A DNA stretch of 63,998 nucleotides, counting the filler, from Porpidia crustulata (lineage: Eukaryota): assembly GCA_964255105.1 (NCBI GenBank). It is 6 parts of 6 records of this genome, joined end to end, with 100 filler letters (N's around TTAATTAATTAA, not from the genome) between each part and the next. Parts side by side here need not be neighbours in the genome. Positions count along the whole stretch, not along the records: positions 53,829 to 63,998 come from CAXUWE010000820.1; 5 more parts are not named here. The stretch is one strand, 5' to 3'. The notes beneath the pieces were generated by a model, which worked only from the letters and a program-made list of their open reading frames with translations, was not told the DNA's origin and did not search any database. The translations under genes and the position numbers were made by a program. Of the stretch, positions 10,672 to 63,998 are shown piece after piece (the first letter of the stretch is position 1; each line of letters opens with the position of its first letter).

Positions 10672-10771
10672 NNNNNNNNNNNNNNNNNNNNNNNNNNNNN
10701 NNNNNNNNNNNNNNNTTAATTAATTAANNNNNNNNNNNNNNNNNNNNNNNNNNNNNNNNNNNNNNNNNNNN
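10672..10771. other. Artificial contig linker N44-TTAATTAATTAA-N44
   Basis: Six-frame stop spacer flanked by Ns. Confidence 0.99.
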
Positions 10772-20760: not shown

Positions 20761-21190
20761 TGGTACTATTATCATGTCGCGTCGACGCTTGGGTGTCACA
20801 GTACCTTCGTCCTTCTTTTATGTACAACAGCACTACTTTCTTACACTTTAATGCCAATGATACCCCCCTGTATTGCCTATCATTTACCCTTCAGCTTAGA
20901 ATTCCTTGAGGACTATCTTCCATAGACACAACAGCATTGATCTCGTGTTCTCAGTGTCACCTTCCCCCTTTATGCTACCCTTGGTATCATCAGGTCGCGT
21001 CGACGCTTGGGTGTCACAGTACCTTCGTCCTTTTGTGTACAACAGCACCATTTTCTTATAATTTAATGCCATCGATATCCCCCTGTATTATCTCTTATGT
21101 ACCATCCACCTTAGATTTCCCTGAAAAGGATCATCCATAGATATAATAGCATCGATCCCATATTCTCCGTATCATCTCACCCCTTTGTGC
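20761..21190. repeat. Diverged tandem duplication, ~218-bp period
   Basis: Identical 39-mer GTCGCGTCGACGCTTGGGTGTCACAGTACCTTCGTCCTT at 20776 and 20994; similarity continues ~190 bp. Confidence 0.9.
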
Positions 21191-21438: not shown

Positions 21439-21538
21439 NNNNNNNNNNNNNNNNNNNNNNNNNNNNNNNNNNNNNNNNNNNNTTAATTAATTAANNNNNN
21501 NNNNNNNNNNNNNNNNNNNNNNNNNNNNNNNNNNNNNN
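21439..21538. other. Artificial contig linker
   Basis: N44-TTAATTAATTAA-N44. Confidence 0.99.
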
Positions 21539-32204: not shown

Positions 32205-32304
32205 NNNNNNNNNNNNNNNNNNNNNNNNNNNNNNNNNNNNNNNNNNNNTTAATTAATTAANNNNNNNNNNNNNNNNNNNNNNNNNNNNNNNNNNNNNNNN
32301 NNNN
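32205..32304. other. Artificial contig linker
   Basis: N44-TTAATTAATTAA-N44. Confidence 0.99.
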
Positions 32305-42968: not shown

Positions 42969-43068
42969 NNNNNNNNNNNNNNNNNNNNNNNNNNNNNNNN
43001 NNNNNNNNNNNNTTAATTAATTAANNNNNNNNNNNNNNNNNNNNNNNNNNNNNNNNNNNNNNNNNNNN
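42969..43068. other. Artificial contig linker
   Basis: N44-TTAATTAATTAA-N44. Confidence 0.99.
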
Positions 43069-53728: not shown

Positions 53729-53828
53729 NNNNNNNNNNNNNNNNNNNNNNNNNNNNNNNNNNNNNNNNNNNNTTAATTAATTAANNNNNNNNNNNNNNNN
53801 NNNNNNNNNNNNNNNNNNNNNNNNNNNN
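53729..53828. other. Artificial contig linker
   Basis: N44-TTAATTAATTAA-N44. Confidence 0.99.
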
Positions 53829-54430
53829 ACCTTCTCCACCCTCACCACAAACTCAGCCGCGAAATACCTTTTCTCCACGTACAGAATTTGCCACAGCCCA
53901 TACAGCGTATCCCTGAGAGCCTCATACGTCAGCCCGTGTCCGCCGCTCACCACAAAAAGCTTGCAGGCGACCGAGAGCCTGATGTAGGGATCCAAAGTGG
54001 TCGGCAAGGGCCCATGAGCATCGTGCTCTATTATGAGAGTTTCGATCTCGGAGAGGGCGTTCCACAGGACGGATGCGAGCGCTGTGTTGAGGAGCGGCAG
54101 GTTGGAGTGGAGGGAAAGGGTGATGGTGGTGGAGGTGTTGGGGATGTGGTAGGTCACGCGCTCGTTGCGGAACGGGAGGCTACTGTTTATGTGGAGGCTG
54201 GGGACGTGGTTTAGAAATGTGGGATTGTTCGTGAGAAGGGGGGTCGGGTGGTTGGAGGCTTGAGGGTACGGCTTACACGGAAACGTTTGCGTGGAAAACA
54301 TGAATAGGAGGATTGACGATGGGAGACGCGGAAGATGCTGTTGCTGGTGGTCCCGCATTCGTAGGACGGAGGTGATGAAGGAGCAGCAAGAACGATGGTA
54401 AGAGCTGCATGATGGGGTTCGGGCCAACAT
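53829..54430 (-). CDS. Hypothetical protein, 3'-truncated by contig edge
   Basis: ~200 open codons (YHIPNTSTTI...LTYEALRDTLYGLWQILY) running into the gap. Confidence 0.6.
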
Positions 54431-55069
54431 TTCAAGATGCTATGGACCTCGGATGGTGCTCTGCCATGGGGTTTGGACTACCACAAGTCGGTGGCTTCTG
54501 GTAAAGGAACATCCCTGCGTGTGGAAATGTGGTTGAGACACGGGTATTTGACGGGAGAATATCAGAGGCGACATGCGCAATGCAACCTTTATAATCTTCC
54601 TCGCTCCTTATCTCAACCCCGCACATATTGACGTGTAGACCTTGGGTCCGAATTGTTTCCGACGGATATTGTATAAAAGCGGGTGAGGTGATGGAGGAAA
54701 TGGCAGAAAATGGGATAGTTAAAGACATGTAGGTATCGCTAACAAAAGATGTAAAAGGCGGGAAATGAAATAGAGAGAGGTCGGGTTGAGCCTCCGTTTC
54801 ATGCACTACCTGTTCAATGACTCGAATCTGTGGGAATATATGAAGCTGGGTTGTATCGTATGAAACTACGGGTAAATCCTGACGTCAATCTTCGCTCAAT
54901 AACATAGCATGTCGCTAAAAGTGACGAGTAAATCTCCTCTCCGCTTATGATCGTTATGTCGCCATGCTAGAAGAATGACATCTTTTTACGCATGTAGAAG
55001 CGTCTATGTGGCTTTTACGATAGCTACTTTTTATGATTTTGTATACACTAATCTGACCGCTGTACTCGC

Positions 55070-56031
55070 CTACTCAATCACGTCCTGAAATGTGCCCGTC
55101 ATGGAATTGCAGAAAGACCCAGGAGGTGCTGATATTTCAGATACTTTCTTGACCTTATCCTCATACACATTTCCATCGGTTGTGGAACAGCACGCCTGCG
55201 AGACATAGGTGCAGTTGCAGGCGCACGGGAACGGGCCCGAAGCATCCGTTAAGGGTGGAGGAGTTGGAGGAGCCGAGCTTGATCCATTGGGTGTGATGGT
55301 ACCATTGGCTTCGGATAAGCACCGTCCGCGCTGGCATTGGGTGTCTAGAGCAGATGAGACCGCGCTTGAAACCGCATTTGCAAACCATGCACAGGTACCA
55401 GGCTGTGATTTGGTTTGGCCCACCGGGGGCTTCGATACTTTGCATACATAATTGTCTCCAGCGCAGTCATTCCAGGATGCGCAAGGAGCACCTGGTGGTT
55501 GCTGCTTGATGGAGTGGCGATGATGGGCAGGTGGAGCAACCACACCATTATTAGGCGTTTGGTAATTAATCGCGACATTTGGATGCAATGCGGTATCCTC
55601 GATGGGAATCATGTTCTCCTGATTGTTGAAGCAATAACACCATTCGGTTTTGCATTGCTGAGCATAGAAGTAGAGAGGTGAGCCAAATGGCCAACAAGTC
55701 ACATGGTCAGACATTCCACAAGCACACCCTGCAGCCTCACATAGTTTTGTGAGCTGTTGCGCTGGCGGATAAGAGGTGATTCTTGATCTGATTGTTGCAG
55801 GGTTGACCCCTAAGTCTGAAAGACCGGGCGGTAAATTGCCATGACAAGTCAGTATCTGATACTATTAGTACGTATACGTAGAGATATTTGAGACCACAGG
55901 CCTACAAAATCGCGCTTAACTAACGATAGCTCTGGCATAGGTGATACATTGACTGGGGAGCCCAAAGTTAACTTCACAAGGTAAATGACGGATAAAAGCC
56001 AGGTAGGAGATAGAGATGGTAGAAATAGCAT
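55070..56031 (-). CDS. Secreted cysteine-rich protein (20 Cys)
   Basis: Signal peptide plus Kex2-like LVKR; intron 55905-55856 joins KRDF|ILTCHG in frame with ORF 55714-55070; CACNCTYVSQACC motif. Confidence 0.8.
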
Positions 56032-57036
56032 GCTTCATAGATCAGTATCGAAAGTAAATGCTTTGCTGAATAGGCGGATGCGGAGAAATATGTGTGGGAA
56101 GGGGAAATATAAGTATTGCAGCGCCGACGAGCAAAACGCACGATGTGCCCTTGTATTCCGCCTCGATGTGGAGTCTCCCATGTTTGCCGCGATAGGGAAG
56201 TTTGGCGTTAAGCGTAGTAGAAGACCTAGATGTTGATCAACCAATCATAGTAAGGATTTATATGTCAAAGCGCTAGAACATAGCAGGAAACAGGCATAAG
56301 GCGATGTAAGGCACCAGGAAGGGAGAGATAGGAGTTGCAAACCACCAAGACTCGTTTATCAATGAAACGATGGATTCACGACGGAGGTTGAGCAAGCCCT
56401 CGGACAATATGCGACAAGCGATCACCGATGCATTCAGAAATAGCCCGCGAATCAGCCTCAAGTGGGCATTGATGATCGATCTTAGTGCCACCAAGAGCAA
56501 ATATGCCGTGACGAGTCGAATTGCTTGAATCGCAAGCTCTGGCAGAAGGCAACCTTCAGTCAGGCTGCTTGGTACACGCCGACCGCTACGACCAACCAAA
56601 GGTCATCGTATGATGGTCAACGGTATGACTTGCAGTGAGGCAGCAGCGTACTTATCGAGTCTGTTTTGTGTCACATGTTTGGGCGCATTTTGACAGCGAT
56701 TCAATCTTGGTCAACTGAAAACGACAGGATAAATGGGGCCAAGGGTCGCTCAAGTCAAAGATTTTCTGGGAGCACAAAAATCCCGACTAAGTTCTCTTGC
56801 GACTATCGCGAAAGATTGAGATCGTCAAAACCAAGGAAAGGTATTCTGCTCCGTGAGTAGTGGGCAAGAATCAGCGCACATGGACGTCGTTATGTGCCCT
56901 ATCTGGGCACTTGGGGTCTGTGATGATAGGGCGAGAGGGAATTTTCTGATCTGCACGAAAGTGTTTATTACAACATTAAATACAATAGTGGTCTCAATAG
57001 CGTAACGGAGGTTGGATCATCCCGGTATCATACTCT

Positions 57037-57442
57037 TTTTTTTGTTATGTCAGGTTTATTGTCCTTATGCAAGCTAGGCTTATGAAAGACACACGACTAG
57101 TTACATTAAACACGCTTAATTGTGGGACGATTTTCTCGTAGGCCGAATTCTCGCTTAGCAAGTTCTCGAGACATAGCATCACTGCCGATACTGAGTTTCA
57201 CAGTTCCCTCCACCCTTACTAATTCTTAAGGAAAATGTATAAAACCCTAAGAACCCCGATATTTCCACAGCAGCTTAGTATAGCTAGCAGAAGCCTCCTT
57301 CTTGGCAGCACCGTGTGACAGAGGTGGGATTCGAACCCACGAGCTTCGCGTTTCTCTAGCGGGGGCCGCCCTCCCCTAGCGCCTAGAGTATTAACTAGCC
57401 CTTCCAGAATGATGCACTACCAACTGCACCACTCCCCCGTCT
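57037..57442 (-). mobile_element. tRNA-derived SINE-like retroposon with 13-bp TSD
   Basis: GGTATCATACTCT at 57024-57036 and 57443-57455; tRNA head at 5' end; AATAAA plus A8 tail at 3' end. Confidence 0.85.
57316..57441 (-). ncRNA. tRNA-like head (pseudo-tRNA) with A box, B box and 50-nt intron-like insert
   Basis: A box TGGTGCAGTTGG 57431-57420; T arm GTGGG-TTCGAAT-CCCAC; nominal anticodon GGA; mismatched anticodon stem. Confidence 0.8.
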
Positions 57443-57711
57443 GGTATCATACTCTAAAGTGCAGGAGCGTGAGGAGTTCGTCATACTCTACAGCCTGCCC
57501 TATTCGTACGGAACAAGCTAGGCAGGTGTCTGCTTCCGTCATCCTCCAACTTGGTCAGGTATTCTATTTTCATTCTTTAGATTCCTATTCCCTATTCGGA
57601 CAGTCGTTATCTTTACTTCCAGCCCATTGCTAGGTACCTCTTGCCTCCCTCACATCAATTGTACCTTTACTGGGCGTTAAGGTAGCGGGGCACCCGCGGT
57701 GAAGTCTTAAA

Positions 57712-59355
57712 ATGGTGCTCGACAATGATACTAGAGGATGGATCATGTCCTGCGTAAGCGGCATAGGTAAGCTTTGAATCGATGTATTGGTAGGGTCTAG
57801 ATCCTAATTGCCTTCTAGCTTGTGTGGTGGGCTCGAGTATCATCTGCGTGGACCTCATCATACGGCGTATCCCCGGGAAACGCAACTTCAGAATCCAAGA
57901 TAGCAATGTGTTTCTGTCGTCTTCGCTCAGTCTAAGTTTTGGTGTCATGGTAAGGCCAGATGCCACAAGGTATGAAGCCTACTAATTGGTTCTGGTGGGT
58001 AGCTGTTCTCGTCACTATACAGCATTCTACCCTCGGCGAAAGACTATCTCACCAAGAGCGGCTTCTCTTCCCAAACAGCTGCTTACATTACCACTGGATG
58101 TTTCATTGGTGGTGTAATAGGCATCCAAGCTATTTCACGCCTATTACATCACTATATACCTTCCCACGTGGTTGACTGCGATCACACTCATGACGAGCAA
58201 GACGGAGACAACAGCGATGAGCATTCGCACGAGCATTATAATGGTCACTCGCATCAGCGACACGAATCATTCTCAGAAGATACGCCTTTGCTCTCTAGAG
58301 AATATCCTGATTTGAAGCCAAGCCTTGGACAACGGTCGAGATCCGAAACAGTTGAGACTGCTCCTTCCTTGATTCGAAGACCAACCCTGAAAACCCGTCT
58401 GACAGCTCAGGTATCGACTCTTGTGTCGGGCGCCAAATCAGCTTGTGATGAGGGTGGGCCTTGTTATGGTTACAGTGATCCATGCGGGCAGGAATGCCTG
58501 AAAGCGATTAGTCGGAGCCCGACAAGGATATCAGGCAGGCAGGCATTCCCTGCACCACCACGGCAAAAGTCGCTTCTCCGTACTTCGACCGTGCCATATC
58601 CTCGCGCTGCTCAGCGTCCTCTTGAAGGCCTAGGCGAGGAACCCTCCCCGCTTGATCAAGATACCATCGATTCTAGAAGGCCTAGTAATCGAATACCAGG
58701 GGCTTCAAAGGCTATGCCTCGTGGCAGAGAAGCTGCCCCCATACATTCCCATTTCCAGCCTAGATCTGAATATTCTCACGATAACCTTGAGAGTGGCCGG
58801 AAACGCGGATTCTCTTCTGAATCAGATGGCGGTCCCCCAAATGAACCCGCGCAAGCCCACCACCATCATGTCCCTACTAACGCCTTTCTGTCGATTGGAC
58901 TCCAAACATCCATTGCGATTGCTTTGCATAAATTACCAGAGGGCTTCATAACCTATGCCACAAATCATGCCAACCCATCATTGGGCTTCACTGTGTTCGT
59001 AGCACTCTTTATCCACAACATCACCGAAGGTTTCGCCATGGCCCTTCCGCTCTACCTTGCAATAGGCAGCAGGTGGAAAGCGATGTTCTGGAGTTCGCTA
59101 CTAGGGGGCGTCAGCCAACCGCTAGGCGCTGGTGCCGCGGCCTTGTGGTTCAGGCTCGCTGGAAAGGGCGACATGACTCCTGGGGAAACCGTCTATGGTT
59201 GCATGTTTGCGATCACGGCAGGTATCATGGCTAGCGTTGCGTTGCAGTTATTCTCCGAGAGCTTGGGCCTGACGCACAACCGCAATATATGTATTACTTT
59301 TGCCTTTATTGGGATGGGGGTTCTGAGCTTGAGTTTTGCGTTGACTGCGGGCTGA
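57712..59355 (+). CDS. ZIP-family zinc transporter (Zrt3-like)
   Basis: SLSFGVM|LFSSLY, His-rich loops, IALHKLPEG and FIHNITEG signatures; two introns. Confidence 0.93.
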
Positions 59356-59850
59356 GCGAGTGGTGTCGGGATTCACGTTGCATCGACTATAGATACCCTT
59401 TAGACCCTTACGAATCTCGTTTCTCGACTCTACGGCGCGCCATGGGTTGGTTCGGCTCTCCAACCGGACCATTCGTCAAATCCGGGCGTTTTGGGGCCTG
59501 TATTTTGTAAAATATACCATAAGCGCACTATAGAAGATTGATAGATTGATAATGAGAACTCAATCAGACCCCGTCGACGCTACTGACGACGTACCCAAAC
59601 TTCCTAGATAGTATCAAAAGCAGATTATATCTGGTGCATGAAACCCCGTTTATATAGCTTTCATCCTCACTCATCATGACCATGCAAGGCCGACAACACG
59701 TAAAGCGACTTATCGACCCAGTCAACACGATTTTCTGGCGATGTTGTACGTACTTTAATCCATCGACCTGTCGCCACACCGTTATCGACACCTCCGGACA
59801 CCTCCGGCCACCACCGCCACAACAACCACCCACACATCCATAGCCTGCCC

Positions 59851-60042
59851 ATGGAAGAGTACTTGATCAACTCGTGCGTGGCCATCTTCTACTGCTGCCA
59901 GTGCGGTTACCCGACCGCCGTCTTCCTCGGGGACGATCTCGCCCTGGGTTGTGGGTTTTGCCCTCACACCCATAATTCGAGCTGCCCCGGGTGCAGCTGG
60001 TACGTCTTCGTGGAGCTGCCGCCGGCCCCAGCACCAATGTGA
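59851..60042 (+). CDS. Small Cys-rich putative zinc-ribbon protein (63 aa)
   Basis: YCCQCG...CGFCPH...CPGC; strongly GC3-biased codons. Confidence 0.55.
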   Translation: MEEYLINSCVAIFYCCQCGYPTAVFLGDDLALGCGFCPHTHNSSCPGCSWYVFVELPPAPAPM

Positions 60043-61594
60043 GCCGGTCTGCTGGAGTCGCGCAGTCGATGGGCTGATGGTGGATACAGTGGGGAGGCCA
60101 GTGGCGGTTCAGGAGCAGCTGCTGGAGGGTCGGGAGATCGTTGACCTCAGAGAGGTGAGGTATGGTTTTTCTTTTGTGTTTTTTTGAGATTATGGTAGAG
60201 TGATGTGGGTGTTCTGTTTGTGAGTATGTGTGGATATAAGCACACAGTTCGAAGTGATGAAGACGTGAACTCATGGATCGAATAGAGATCTCATGAAATT
60301 CTGCGATGGGATTCTCCTTCTCGTCATCTCGTCATCATGAACCTAGCTTTCTTTGATATGGACGTTTTGCTCGTTATCGTCTCATTCCGTGATCATTGTG
60401 GGTAAGATCAATCGCTGAGTCTTCTCATTTCCCCTCGTTGTCCTGTTAGCTCAGGGGTTCATTCTTCCTGATGCCTGTTCCAATATTACTGGTTGAGGGT
60501 CATGGTACTTATTATCATTCAGACCAGCCTTCAAGCTTGTCGTAGCTGGCAGTCGTGCAACCCGTCGTTCTTCTTGATGATCCAATCAATGTTTGTGTCA
60601 ACCTTGTTAGTCACTTTTCATTCAGTCCCACTACATAATAACGATAGGATCCATAGCTTTTGATCGTCTCTATCAGCTAATGGATCTGGCTTTCCTATTT
60701 TCTACATTGTTCCACAAAGTTTTAGTCTACACTTCTGCAGAAGTTTGTTTTAAATACATTTTCTTGAGTTCTTTGAGTAGCCTGCGATATCTTTCAGTCA
60801 AGTCTCGCCCCGATTCTTTTGTAGATTTCCATGGTTTGGCGCGACCGCAGACGTGGTCGGCTTGTGTCTCATGGTGAGACGTCTTCTTGTGGAGAAATAT
60901 TCTCAGACATGCACCAACACTACTTGTGCATGTCAGGTTTCATAAGTGTCACGGCTGTTGCTAGCTCTACAGGCTCAATGTTTTCATGGGATAATGTACG
61001 AGTAGACGTTGGAATGTTGATATCGGATTAATAGTCGGGCCGGCCAGCACAAGCCCCGAAAGCAGTCCCTAGCGTTGGACTATTTGGACTACTGCGACTA
61101 ACGATTCTTTACATGCGCAGTGCGATCGTTGGCGTCCTCCTTCCCCACCAGGAGGAGCTCTCGAAGCTTCACCAAAGCTGACCTGCGTCTGTCCTTCATC
61201 CACCAACTCGTATCTCTTTTTCTCCGTGCCATTGTCTGTACTGTCTTTCTTATTTCTCTGATTTTGGCTGTTCTCAGACTGACGTGCTTTGACCAAAGTA
61301 GGTAGACCACACGGTTGTTCGCAAGGGTTTCCGCTCCCGCACAAGCTTTCCAATCAGCGCTTTAGACTGACTGAGGACAGTCTTGCCAAGTGCATCTGGG
61401 ACGAGTACAAGCATAATTGAAGATACTCAACCACGATATCCTACTGCCGAGAAGTAACAGACCGCTTGACATCCGCATAACCTCATATCGTCGCTATTGC
61501 CGTTCAGCAGATCACCCCTACCATTCTGTACTCAAAGTCGCCATCCCTGTTCCCCCGTTAAATCCGCCGTCACAAAAGCCTCCCCAAAGTTCTC

Positions 61595-63160
61595 ATGCCG
61601 ACATTAGGGCTTTGGAAGAAGAAGAGGACCAAGGACTCGGGCCACAAGGACCCAAACTCCCCGTCTTCGCCAATTGGCAATTCTCCAATTACACCTACGA
61701 CGACTGGCGGGTTCCAAGAATCGCTTGCGTCCACATCTTCCCACACTTTGTCATCGCAATCCCAAAATAGTTCCTCAAAGGGCGCACAACGACCACCGTC
61801 GTCAGGGGTACCTCACCAGCAACCCGCGTCATCCACACTTCGCAGCCCTGGCCATGATCCGCTAGTAAATACTTCACAGCAAGACGCGCCAAAGACAACC
61901 AACGCGATCAGCTCACCCCAAAACGAAGAGCCTTCGAATATGGAGAATTCAGGCATTGGATTGGGAGTGGCAGCAAACCCGGACGCAAGGATCACAAACA
62001 CTCAACCGCGCACCACGAAAGGCAAGTATTCGCTGACAGACTTTGCATTGCAGCGGACACTGGGCACTGGGAGCTTCGGGAGAGTCCATCTGGTTCAATC
62101 TAAGCATAACCAACGCTTCTATGCGATAAAGGTATTGAAAAAGGCGCAAGTGGTCAGAATGAAGCAGGTGGAGCATACGAATGACGAGCGGCGAATGCTG
62201 CAGAAGGTCAAGCACGCTTTTCTAGTCACATTGTGGGGAACTTTTCAAGATTCTAAAAACTTATATATGGTCATGGATTTCATCGAGGGTGGAGAGCTAT
62301 TCAGTCTTTTACGAAAGTCGCAGGTCAGTGGCATTGGATTTCATGATTGTTACTATCAATTTTACACCATCTTTGAGTACAAGGACTCACTAGAGACATA
62401 GCGTTTCCCGAACCCAGTTGCCAAATTCTATGCGGCAGAGGTCACACTGGCGCTTGACTACTTGCACTCGATGCACATTATTTACCGAGATCTTAAGCCC
62501 GAGAACCTTTTACTGGACAGACACGGTCATTTGAAGATCACGGATTTCGGGTTTGCCAAAGAGGTACCGGACATTACATGGACGCTCTGTGGCACGCCAG
62601 ATTATCTAGCACCTGAAGTGGTGAATTCCAAAGGCTACAACAAGTCAGTAGACTGGTAAGTGCATCAAACGTGCCATTTCCTCGAAATCAGGTTCATTGT
62701 GGACTAGGTGGTCACTTGGCATCCTGATCTTTGAGATGCTCTGCGGCTTCACCCCGTTCTGGGACGGCGGCTCTCCCATGAAGATCTACGAGAATATCCT
62801 CAAGGGGCGTGTAAGGTACCCACCTTATATTCACCCCGACGCTCAAGATCTACTTCAACGGCTCATAACGCCGGATCTAACAAAGCGATTGGGAAATCTT
62901 CACGGAGGATCCAAAGATGTCATGCAACATGCGTGGTTCACAGAAGTTACATGGGAAAGATTGGCGAGAAAAGACATTGACGCGCCCTACGTACCTCCAG
63001 TACAAGGAGGTATTGGGGATGCCAGTCAGTTCGACAATTACCCAGAAGAAACAGAAGCGTATGGTGAACGAGGACCAGATCCGTAAGTAATTTTACGACA
63101 TTTTGCGCAATCGTCTACTCATTATGCAACAGACATGGACACCATTTCCGCGACTTCTGA
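61595..63160 (+). CDS. pkaA: cAMP-dependent protein kinase catalytic subunit
   Basis: [37 protein letters not shown]-terminal FRDF*; three introns. Confidence 0.96.
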
Positions 63161-63747
63161 GCAGTATTTTGGCAGCTCTTTCCGCCAAAGCTTTAATGTT
63201 CACTGACAATGAATGATGATGAAGATGAAAGGATTGGACAAAAAAGCCGGCTAAGGAGTGAGCTGTGGGTGGTGGACAACAGCACCGATGCAATTTCTCC
63301 CTCCAGCGTATTACCCAAGATGTAATTACCTTGATGGCGCGCGTCTTTTTCTCAATCGATGCCGTCGCATCCGCAAGACCCTAAACGCTCTTCGTCTCAC
63401 TTTTCGAATTGATACTCTCGAATATGCGCATGCTTTATCTAAGGTATCAATTACACTCCAGCAATGTACTTGAAGCAACTCGTGAAAATCGAATGATGCA
63501 GCAATCCAACCGTGGACCAAAGTTTACATGTTTTGCATCAAGGTGCTATCAGTGAATCTGCTGTGGGAAGAAACGCCAGCGCCTACTTATTGAAGTGATC
63601 TTATGCATTTCCCCGGCGATTTTTCGTCGCGACAATTTGTAGCCGTTCTAATCATGTTCTAGTTATTCAACGCTTCAAAACGCTGGAGCGATTCGCTATA
63701 CAATTCCGTGCTCAGGGTATCATTGAAATTCATCCGCTTCATCGCAC

Positions 63748-63998
63748 TCATCTTGAATGGCTCCCCTTGCTTTCAGACCACATCCTATCGACGACTTGGA
63801 ACACAGCGGTAATCGCCTTCATCGTCCCCTCATCAATCTCCACCCCTCCTGCCCGCTGTAACATCTTGTCTGGATGCCACCTCACTCGATCCTTTTTCAG
63901 CGTATCGCCCAAATTCTCAGGTGCGTTTCGAAAGAATCTCTCAACCTCCTCCTTTGCGACATCCTCCCACCTCCCACTTTCTACCGGCCATGGAATCC
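63748..63998 (-). CDS. 3' end of an NFKBIL1-like / J-domain-like HPD protein
   Basis: IPWPVESG...LKKDRVRWHPDKMLQR...ITAVFQVVDRMW...* open from the window edge. Confidence 0.7.
   Translation of the reverse strand, partial: IPWPVESGRWEDVAKEEVERFFRNAPENLGDTLKKDRVRWHPDKMLQRAGGVEIDEGTMKAITAVFQVVDRMWSESKGSHSR

Follow-up and report, generated by a model that had tools for sequence, protein, structure and literature searches.

Many tRNA genes of the Pezizomycotina carry introns, and the heads of SINEs are usually compared with mature tRNAs. In the literature searched, no description was found of a SINE whose head has retained an intron of a tRNA. In canonical pre-tRNAs, according to the available part of PMC4090602, the intron sits at position 37/38, and the D arm, the T arm, and the acceptor stem stay folded (PMC4090602). 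A described fungal SINE is AfuSINE2 of Aspergillus fumigatus, which has a tRNA-related 5′ region with A and B boxes, followed by a tRNA-unrelated extension; the accessible sections of the publication report lengths of 140–493 bp, target-site duplications of 4–14 bp, and a low copy number, and they also cite Mg-SINE of Magnaporthe as a tRNA-related SINE of filamentous ascomycetes (PMC5063351).

Here, we describe an element from Porpidia crustulata that is a new fungal tRNA-derived SINE family. As far as AfuSINE2 is characterized in the available text, the Porpidia SINE resembles it in being short (406 bp), in having a target-site duplication (13 bp), and in its depth of about 15–20 fold in sequencing reads (PMC5063351). 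The heads of AfuSINE2 do not fold as cloverleaves, and an intron goes unmentioned in the accessible part of that paper, whereas the Porpidia head keeps the acceptor, D, and T arms and, in addition, contains an insert of the size of an intron (PMC5063351). The comparison with the canonical pre-tRNA, as outlined in the portion of PMC4090602 at hand, also reveals shared as well as divergent features. The SINE likewise has a D arm, a T arm, and an acceptor stem, and its extra bases are located one base past the apparent anticodon, but its anticodon stem is broken, there is no pairing between the anticodon and the putative intron, and a 3′ extension of 280 bases follows (PMC4090602). With a length under 1 kb, an interspersed occurrence, and a head-body-tail plan, the element agrees, apart from the copy threshold, with the definition of a SINE in the available text of SINEBase (PMC3531059).

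The SINE was found in a stretch of 63,998 nucleotides of the P. crustulata assembly GCA_964255105.1, which is called the window throughout. It does not represent a single chromosomal stretch but comprises six pieces, each about 10.66 kb long, and the spacers between the pieces consist of 44 N, TTAATTAATTAA, and 44 N. No feature can extend over two pieces, and long-range repeats across pieces are spacer artefacts. The SINE is located in the last piece (53829–63998), and the coordinates of all features are compiled in Table 1.

Table 1. Features of the Porpidia SINE and of its surroundings; positions refer to the whole window
Feature	Positions	Strand	Remarks
Whole SINE (head, body, A tail), 406 bases	57037..57442	-	bounded by the target-site duplication
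5′ target-site duplication AGAGTATGATACC	57443..57455	-	13-mer, identical at both ends of the element
3′ target-site duplication AGAGTATGATACC	57024..57036	-	13-mer, identical at both ends of the element
tRNA-like head, acceptor to discriminator A	57316..57438	-	Rfam RF00005 model positions 1-71; ARAGORN span 57315-57438
A-box-like motif TGGTGCAGTTGG, tRNA positions 8-19	57420..57431	-	T8 = 57431
Insert in the anticodon loop, 50 bases	57352..57401	-	ARAGORN alternative: 43-base intron, 57401-57359
Hairpin in the insert (CTCTAG...CTAGAG, GGGG/CCCC, 7-base loop)	57354..57388	-	also in the whole-head fold
T arm GTGGG-TTCGAAT-CCCAC	57324..57340	-	contains a perfect B box, GGTTCGAATCC (57337-57327)
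tRNA-unrelated body	57044..57315	-	
Two T4 runs in the body	57244-57241, 57235-57232	-	
AATAAA in the body	57060-57055	-	11 bases before the A7 tail
A7 tail	57037..57043	-	
ZIP transporter frame	58168-59355		Pfam Zip, E 9.5e-16; same piece as the SINE
Protein kinase domain, split over two frames	61562-63083		Pkinase profile positions 2-93 and 181-263
Spacers	10672-10771, 21439-21538, 32205-32304, 42969-43068, 53729-53828		

The first 127 bases of the element are tRNA-like. The element as a whole has the features of a tRNA-derived SINE, that is, a tRNA-related head with A and B boxes, a short and non-coding sequence, an A tail, and a target-site duplication. An ORF of at least 90 aa is absent from the SINE, and the body had no Rfam match with E ≤ 1. 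The AATAAA motif near the tail recalls mammalian SINEs with polyadenylated Pol III transcripts; in the window's copy, no terminator T-run follows. A second copy of the SINE was not present in the window, in which blastn yielded one full match and three matches of 12–19 bases (E ≥ 0.26). Likewise, no sequence likeness of the SINE to other DNA was detected in the window or in the metagenome, prokaryote, and viral collections.

The SINE has an intergenic setting, at a distance of about 560 bases from the ZIP transporter frame, which is open from position 58003 and has its ORF start at 58168. The named relatives of the ZIP protein are all from lichen-forming fungi, with identities of 58–63% (Umbilicaria, Lasallia, Schaereria, Mycoblastus, Xylographa, and others), and further relatives reach up to 80% identity. 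The distribution of the kinase domain over two frames fits a gene with introns, and the remaining pieces of the window encode fungal-type domains, too. These relatives and domains mark the host as a Lecanoromycetes-like ascomycete. A match to a reverse transcriptase was not observed for any of 42 ORFs of the window, picked from 64 listed ORFs of at least 130 aa. At positions 20767–21190, a sequence is repeated in tandem; the two copies are 77–96% alike, and the period is about 215–218 bases. Two copies of the 10-mer TAGAGTATGA, 34 bases apart, are located on the minus strand immediately upstream of the SINE, at 57481–57490 and at 57447–57456. The second of these copies overlaps the target-site duplication, and thus the target of the SINE lay within a small local repeat.

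Further copies of the SINE were searched for in a public sequencing run (X1), in which a share of 0.96 of the words sampled from the locus is present; its contigs were compared with the SINE plus 100 bases on each side. In two other runs (X2 and X3), contigs matching the SINE region were absent. The word depth in X1 was 12.3 and 9.18 for the two flanks and 181.5 for the SINE body. Altogether, 27 contigs were located on the SINE region, 21 of which were at least 99% alike, five 95–99%, and one 90–95%. One contig of 312 bases (57066–57377, depth 181.5) runs from the body to 26 bases into the insert (57352–57377), and the remainder of the insert, together with the head, is covered by another contig of 94 bases (57348–57441, depth 122.9). 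Five contigs exit the SINE into mutually unlike DNA. Three of them do so at one end (57036, 57038, 57041) and two at the opposite end (57441, 57443), and these exit points are the ends set by the target-site duplication. The difference in depth between the body (181.5) and the flanks (9–12), together with the five contigs with unlike flanks, indicates that the SINE is dispersed and multi-copy. That the tRNA-like sequence is the head of a SINE, as the initial annotation had assumed, is supported by the 13-base duplication, the A7 tail, the strongly raised depth, and the flanks, which are unlike at either end. Such a combination of sharp ends, differing flanks, a target-site duplication, and an A tail is characteristic of a LINE-dependent retroposon with recent activity.

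The available text of SINEBase sets a minimum of 100 copies per genome (PMC3531059), whereas the depth of the Porpidia SINE suggests about 15–20 near-identical copies, a rough figure, as summed contig depth does not equal copy number; the depth ratio in X1 of about 17 is below the 100 copies of SINEBase, but is likewise no true copy count. Over roughly the final 60 bases of the SINE (57042–57104), the summed depth was 283–671, compared with 181.5 for the body, with the sums inflated by overlapping short contigs. The raised depth would fit either a tail in common with a partner LINE or the presence of many 5′-truncated copies.

The contigs also bear on the question of whether the insert is a general feature of the family. 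Copies without the insert were not found among the X1 contigs, in which neither joints nor left-out letters were observed, although contigs drop rare variants. A sizeable insert-less subfamily would break the contig with the depth of 181.5 at 57351/57352, and this contig crosses the 3′ edge of the insert unbroken. Thus, the expectation that the SINE copies keep the insert was borne out for all X1 head contigs seen, with the same reservation about rare variants. Only one variant position was seen among the X1 contigs, and it lies outside of the insert hairpin. At position 57399, the window has a C on the plus strand, whereas the sole X1 contig at this position (depth 122.9) has a G. This is either a private change of the window's copy in the third base of the insert or a discrepancy between the assembly and the run.

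The tRNA likeness of the SINE head is above chance. The head matched the Rfam tRNA model RF00005 with 27.5 bits (gathering score 29), corresponding to an E-value of 0.0017 on 701 bases and of 0.15 on the whole window, and it was the sole match of the window with E ≤ 1 when 4,227 Rfam families were compared at permissive settings. When introns were allowed, ARAGORN made a single call in the 64-kb window, at the SINE head, and none in any of 30 dinucleotide shuffles of the window. At the default threshold of this intron mode, the head was called as a tRNA-Ser(GGA) with an intron. Default ARAGORN and Rfam at the gathering score retrieved nothing in the window, as is expected for a decayed tRNA head.

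Base for base, the numbering of the head on the minus strand proposed in the initial annotation was correct, for the 5′ half (TCATT, the loop CT-GGA-A ending at 57402, and the extra bases 57401–57352) as well as for the 3′ half (A-CGCGA, AGCTC, the T arm, CTCTGTC, and the A at 57316). The motif TGGTGCAGTTGG has one departure from the A-box consensus. The D arm has a stem of four pairs and the loop AGTTGGTA, which is the type I style, unlike the three-pair style of Ser and Leu tRNAs. The 5′ strand of the acceptor stem had been described as containing three extra G. This holds true for one of two readings, GACGGGG/CTCTGTC, in which three extra bases precede the D arm and which is found in the minimum-energy fold, but not for the other, GGGGGAG/CTCTGTC, which has one mismatch and a leader of 3–4 bases and is preferred by ARAGORN and Rfam. 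In the parse with a 50-base insert, the anticodon stem is reduced to two Watson-Crick pairs and one G-U pair out of five. The score below the Rfam gathering score, the broken anticodon stem, and the lack of a high-scoring call by Rfam or ARAGORN also confirmed that the head is not a working tRNA.

The stability of the head was also compared with that of shuffled sequences. The fold of 57438–57316 was equaled by 54 of 200 shuffles, and the fold of the head plus leader was modestly better than chance (z −2.30, five of 200 shuffles as good). In the predicted structure of the head plus leader, the 5′ strand of the anticodon stem would be taken into an extended D helix of 10 pairs, and the insert would combine with the variable region into a long, irregular arm that replaces the anticodon arm. 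The outer helix of this arm, GGGCU/AGCUC, uses position 57399, at which the sole X1 contig has a different base, and a change on the partner side was not reported. Because the base at 57399 is changed without its partner, the outer helix of the long arm is not a feature of the family.

Both programs place the extra bases of the head within the anticodon arm, and in the 50-base as well as in the 43-base parse they are located one base 3′ of the apparent anticodon. In the Rfam alignment, the anticodon stem retains only its two outer pairs, and 63 bases stand in for 13 model positions; this fits the 50-base parse (stem TCATT/CGCGA, variable loop AGCTC), although the alignment localizes the extra bases no more closely than to the inner part of the anticodon arm. 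ARAGORN proposes a 43-base intron, an anticodon stem TCATT/AGAGA with four of five pairs, and a 12-base variable region. The two parses differ by 7 bases, and thus the 3′ boundary of the insert is ambiguous. Furthermore, ARAGORN seeks introns solely in the anticodon loop, so that its placement of the intron at 37/38 is weak independent evidence. From the initial proposal of a 50-nt insert at 37/38, the presence of extra bases in the anticodon arm could therefore be retained, while the 3′ edge is compatible with a length of 43 or of 50 bases.

The insert had also been described as folding on itself. The 35-base hairpin is indeed the minimum-energy fold, with −14 kcal/mol, but its stability is not above chance for a G+C-rich stretch, being matched or surpassed by 139 of 200 shuffles. 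The same is true of 81 of 200 shuffles of the 50-base insert. On the basis of these two comparisons with shuffled sequences, the hairpin was rejected as a selected structure for want of support. The 3′ stem strand in the ARAGORN parse is the TAGAG that closes the insert hairpin, and thus the two structures are mutually exclusive. A spliceosomal-type intron was also considered and rejected, because the sole GT of the insert starts the sequence GTTAAT, which is not GTRNGT-like, and CTRAY does not occur anywhere in the head.

The location of the insert in the anticodon arm, compatible with position 37/38, favors an origin as an intron. The size of the insert is within the range of fungal tRNA introns. 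The insert is probably a relic of an intron of the founding tRNA gene. On balance, we favor the view that the element is one copy of a young, low-copy family of tRNA-derived SINEs in a Lecanoromycetes-like ascomycete, with the insert representing the intron of the founder tRNA. There is about an even chance that an unspliced pre-tRNA with its intron gave rise to the family and that the intron is passed on as the family spreads.

Such a spread could proceed in the following way. Transcription by Pol III would start at 57441/57442, 1–4 bases before the head, under the control of the internal A and B boxes, which are about 82 bases apart because of the insert. The polymerase would read through the body, including its two T4 runs; T4 is a weak terminator in fungi. 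The reverse transcriptase of a partner LINE would then copy the A-tailed RNA into a staggered nick and leave the 13-base duplication. Both the transcription by Pol III and the dependence on a LINE are inferred. Since a SINE RNA is a primary transcript that has not been processed, the intron of the founder gene would be carried into every copy. The head has decayed since the founding of the family and can no longer be a tRNA.

A specific explanation for the survival of the intron had been suggested at the outset, namely that the mismatched anticodon stem blocks the SEN endonuclease, so that the intron survives retrotransposition. The anticodon stem is weak, as described above, its 5′ strand is predicted to pair into the D helix, and copies of a spliced form were not among the X1 contigs. 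The endonuclease measures from the tRNA body, according to the accessible part of PMC4090602 (PMC4090602). A distorted body or stem should therefore spoil cutting. In view of this ruler mechanism, the idea is reasonable, yet it is not needed. A simpler cause would suffice: the 3′ extension of about 280 bases and the unprocessed ends may keep the RNA outside of tRNA maturation and export altogether, a view that is based on yeast biology. In addition, the stem may have decayed only after the family arose. We consider it doubtful that the protection from SEN accounts for the retained intron.

An alternative to the origin of the insert as an intron is a secondary insertion or expansion in the master copy of the SINE after the founding of the family, which would have been tolerated because sequence between the A and B boxes is neutral for Pol III. 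The insert contains four CTAG palindromes, three of them as GCTAG, and its G+C content is 62%, compared with 42% for the body; both features would fit slippage or duplication. It is also devoid of any stretch of at least four bases that is complementary to the anticodon loop (CTGGAA). Pairing of the intron with the anticodon loop is common in yeast pre-tRNAs, but not universal. Moreover, an intron-bearing parent tRNA is not known, and the divergence of one X1 contig at 57377 implies that the two halves of the insert are not necessarily found together. However, an intron origin predicts that the 43–50 additional bases fall precisely within the anticodon arm, whereas this is only one of several possible outcomes of a random insertion. 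The insert is present in all X1 head contigs seen, and large insertions in SINE heads are uncommon. Taken together, a secondary insertion appears unlikely.

Up to position 57377, the diverging contig agrees with the SINE, and from there, inside the insert, it continues with unrelated sequence. It may represent a 5′-truncated copy or a second subfamily, or it may be a clue to the source of a part of the insert. The sequence collections were also scanned for related arrangements. A metagenome scan for a D arm, a gap of 50–80 bases, and a B box yielded 11 loci, none of which was related to the SINE or SINE-like; they comprised bacterial-type tRNAs beside a second T-arm-like motif and a few calls of intron-bearing tRNAs. 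When prokaryote and viral contigs were scanned with 40 bases taken from the insert and the 3′ exon, zero matches were obtained in either collection. Two of the metagenome contigs are mentioned here in their own right: L009 contains, at 589–698, a call of a eukaryote-style tRNA-Tyr(GTA) with a 26-base intron, and the 188-kb contig L003 contains, at 545–708, a call of a tRNA-Pro(TGG) with an 88-base insert.

As to the parent, the initial annotation had suggested that the 3′ half of the head may resemble the intron-containing tRNA-Ile(UAU). A further alternative is that the parent was an intron-bearing type II tRNA (Leu or Ser), in which case the surplus bases would represent a shorter intron and a long variable arm instead of a single 50-base intron. 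The ARAGORN parse points in this direction, with its tRNA-Ser call, the 12-base variable region, and the 43-base intron. A text search of the literature with the 18-mer of the T arm retrieved only a primer and mammalian Leu and Ser tRNAs, which is a lead to the isotype. According to the available part of PMC10359600, the 18-base stretch of T arm and next base is identical in tRNA-Leu-AAG and tRNA-Ser-GCT, and the 3′ acceptor strand of tRNA-Leu-CAA differs at two of seven bases (PMC10359600). However, the tRNAs in the accessible text of that paper are mammalian (PMC10359600), and T arms are common to several isotypes. The proposed variable region forms no convincing stem, and the D arm of the SINE, with its four-pair stem and the loop AGTTGGTA, is of the type I style. 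A type II parent is therefore rather improbable. Lastly, a working intron-containing tRNA gene with a coincidental downstream repeat is hardly credible despite the call by ARAGORN in the intron mode at the default threshold and the perfect T arm and B box, because the head is under the Rfam gathering score and default ARAGORN is silent, there is a mismatch in the acceptor stem along with a broken anticodon stem, a type I body bears a GGA anticodon, and the high-depth contigs over the head are continuous with the body contig, with the high depth ending 3–5 bases upstream of the head.

Apart from the questions of annotation and of the intron, the element is an ordinary small intergenic retroposon. 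With regard to annotation, a SINE head with an intron can be mistaken for an intron-containing tRNA gene or a pseudogene in assemblies of fungal and lichen metagenomes. If the head has indeed kept an intron, this would be a direct sign that the RNA that founded and propagates the family is an unprocessed primary transcript. If the family was founded from an unspliced pre-tRNA, the SINE RNA would bypass the tRNA-splicing endonuclease, and an intron-keeping head would offer a natural test of what keeps such RNAs from the tRNA-splicing machinery.
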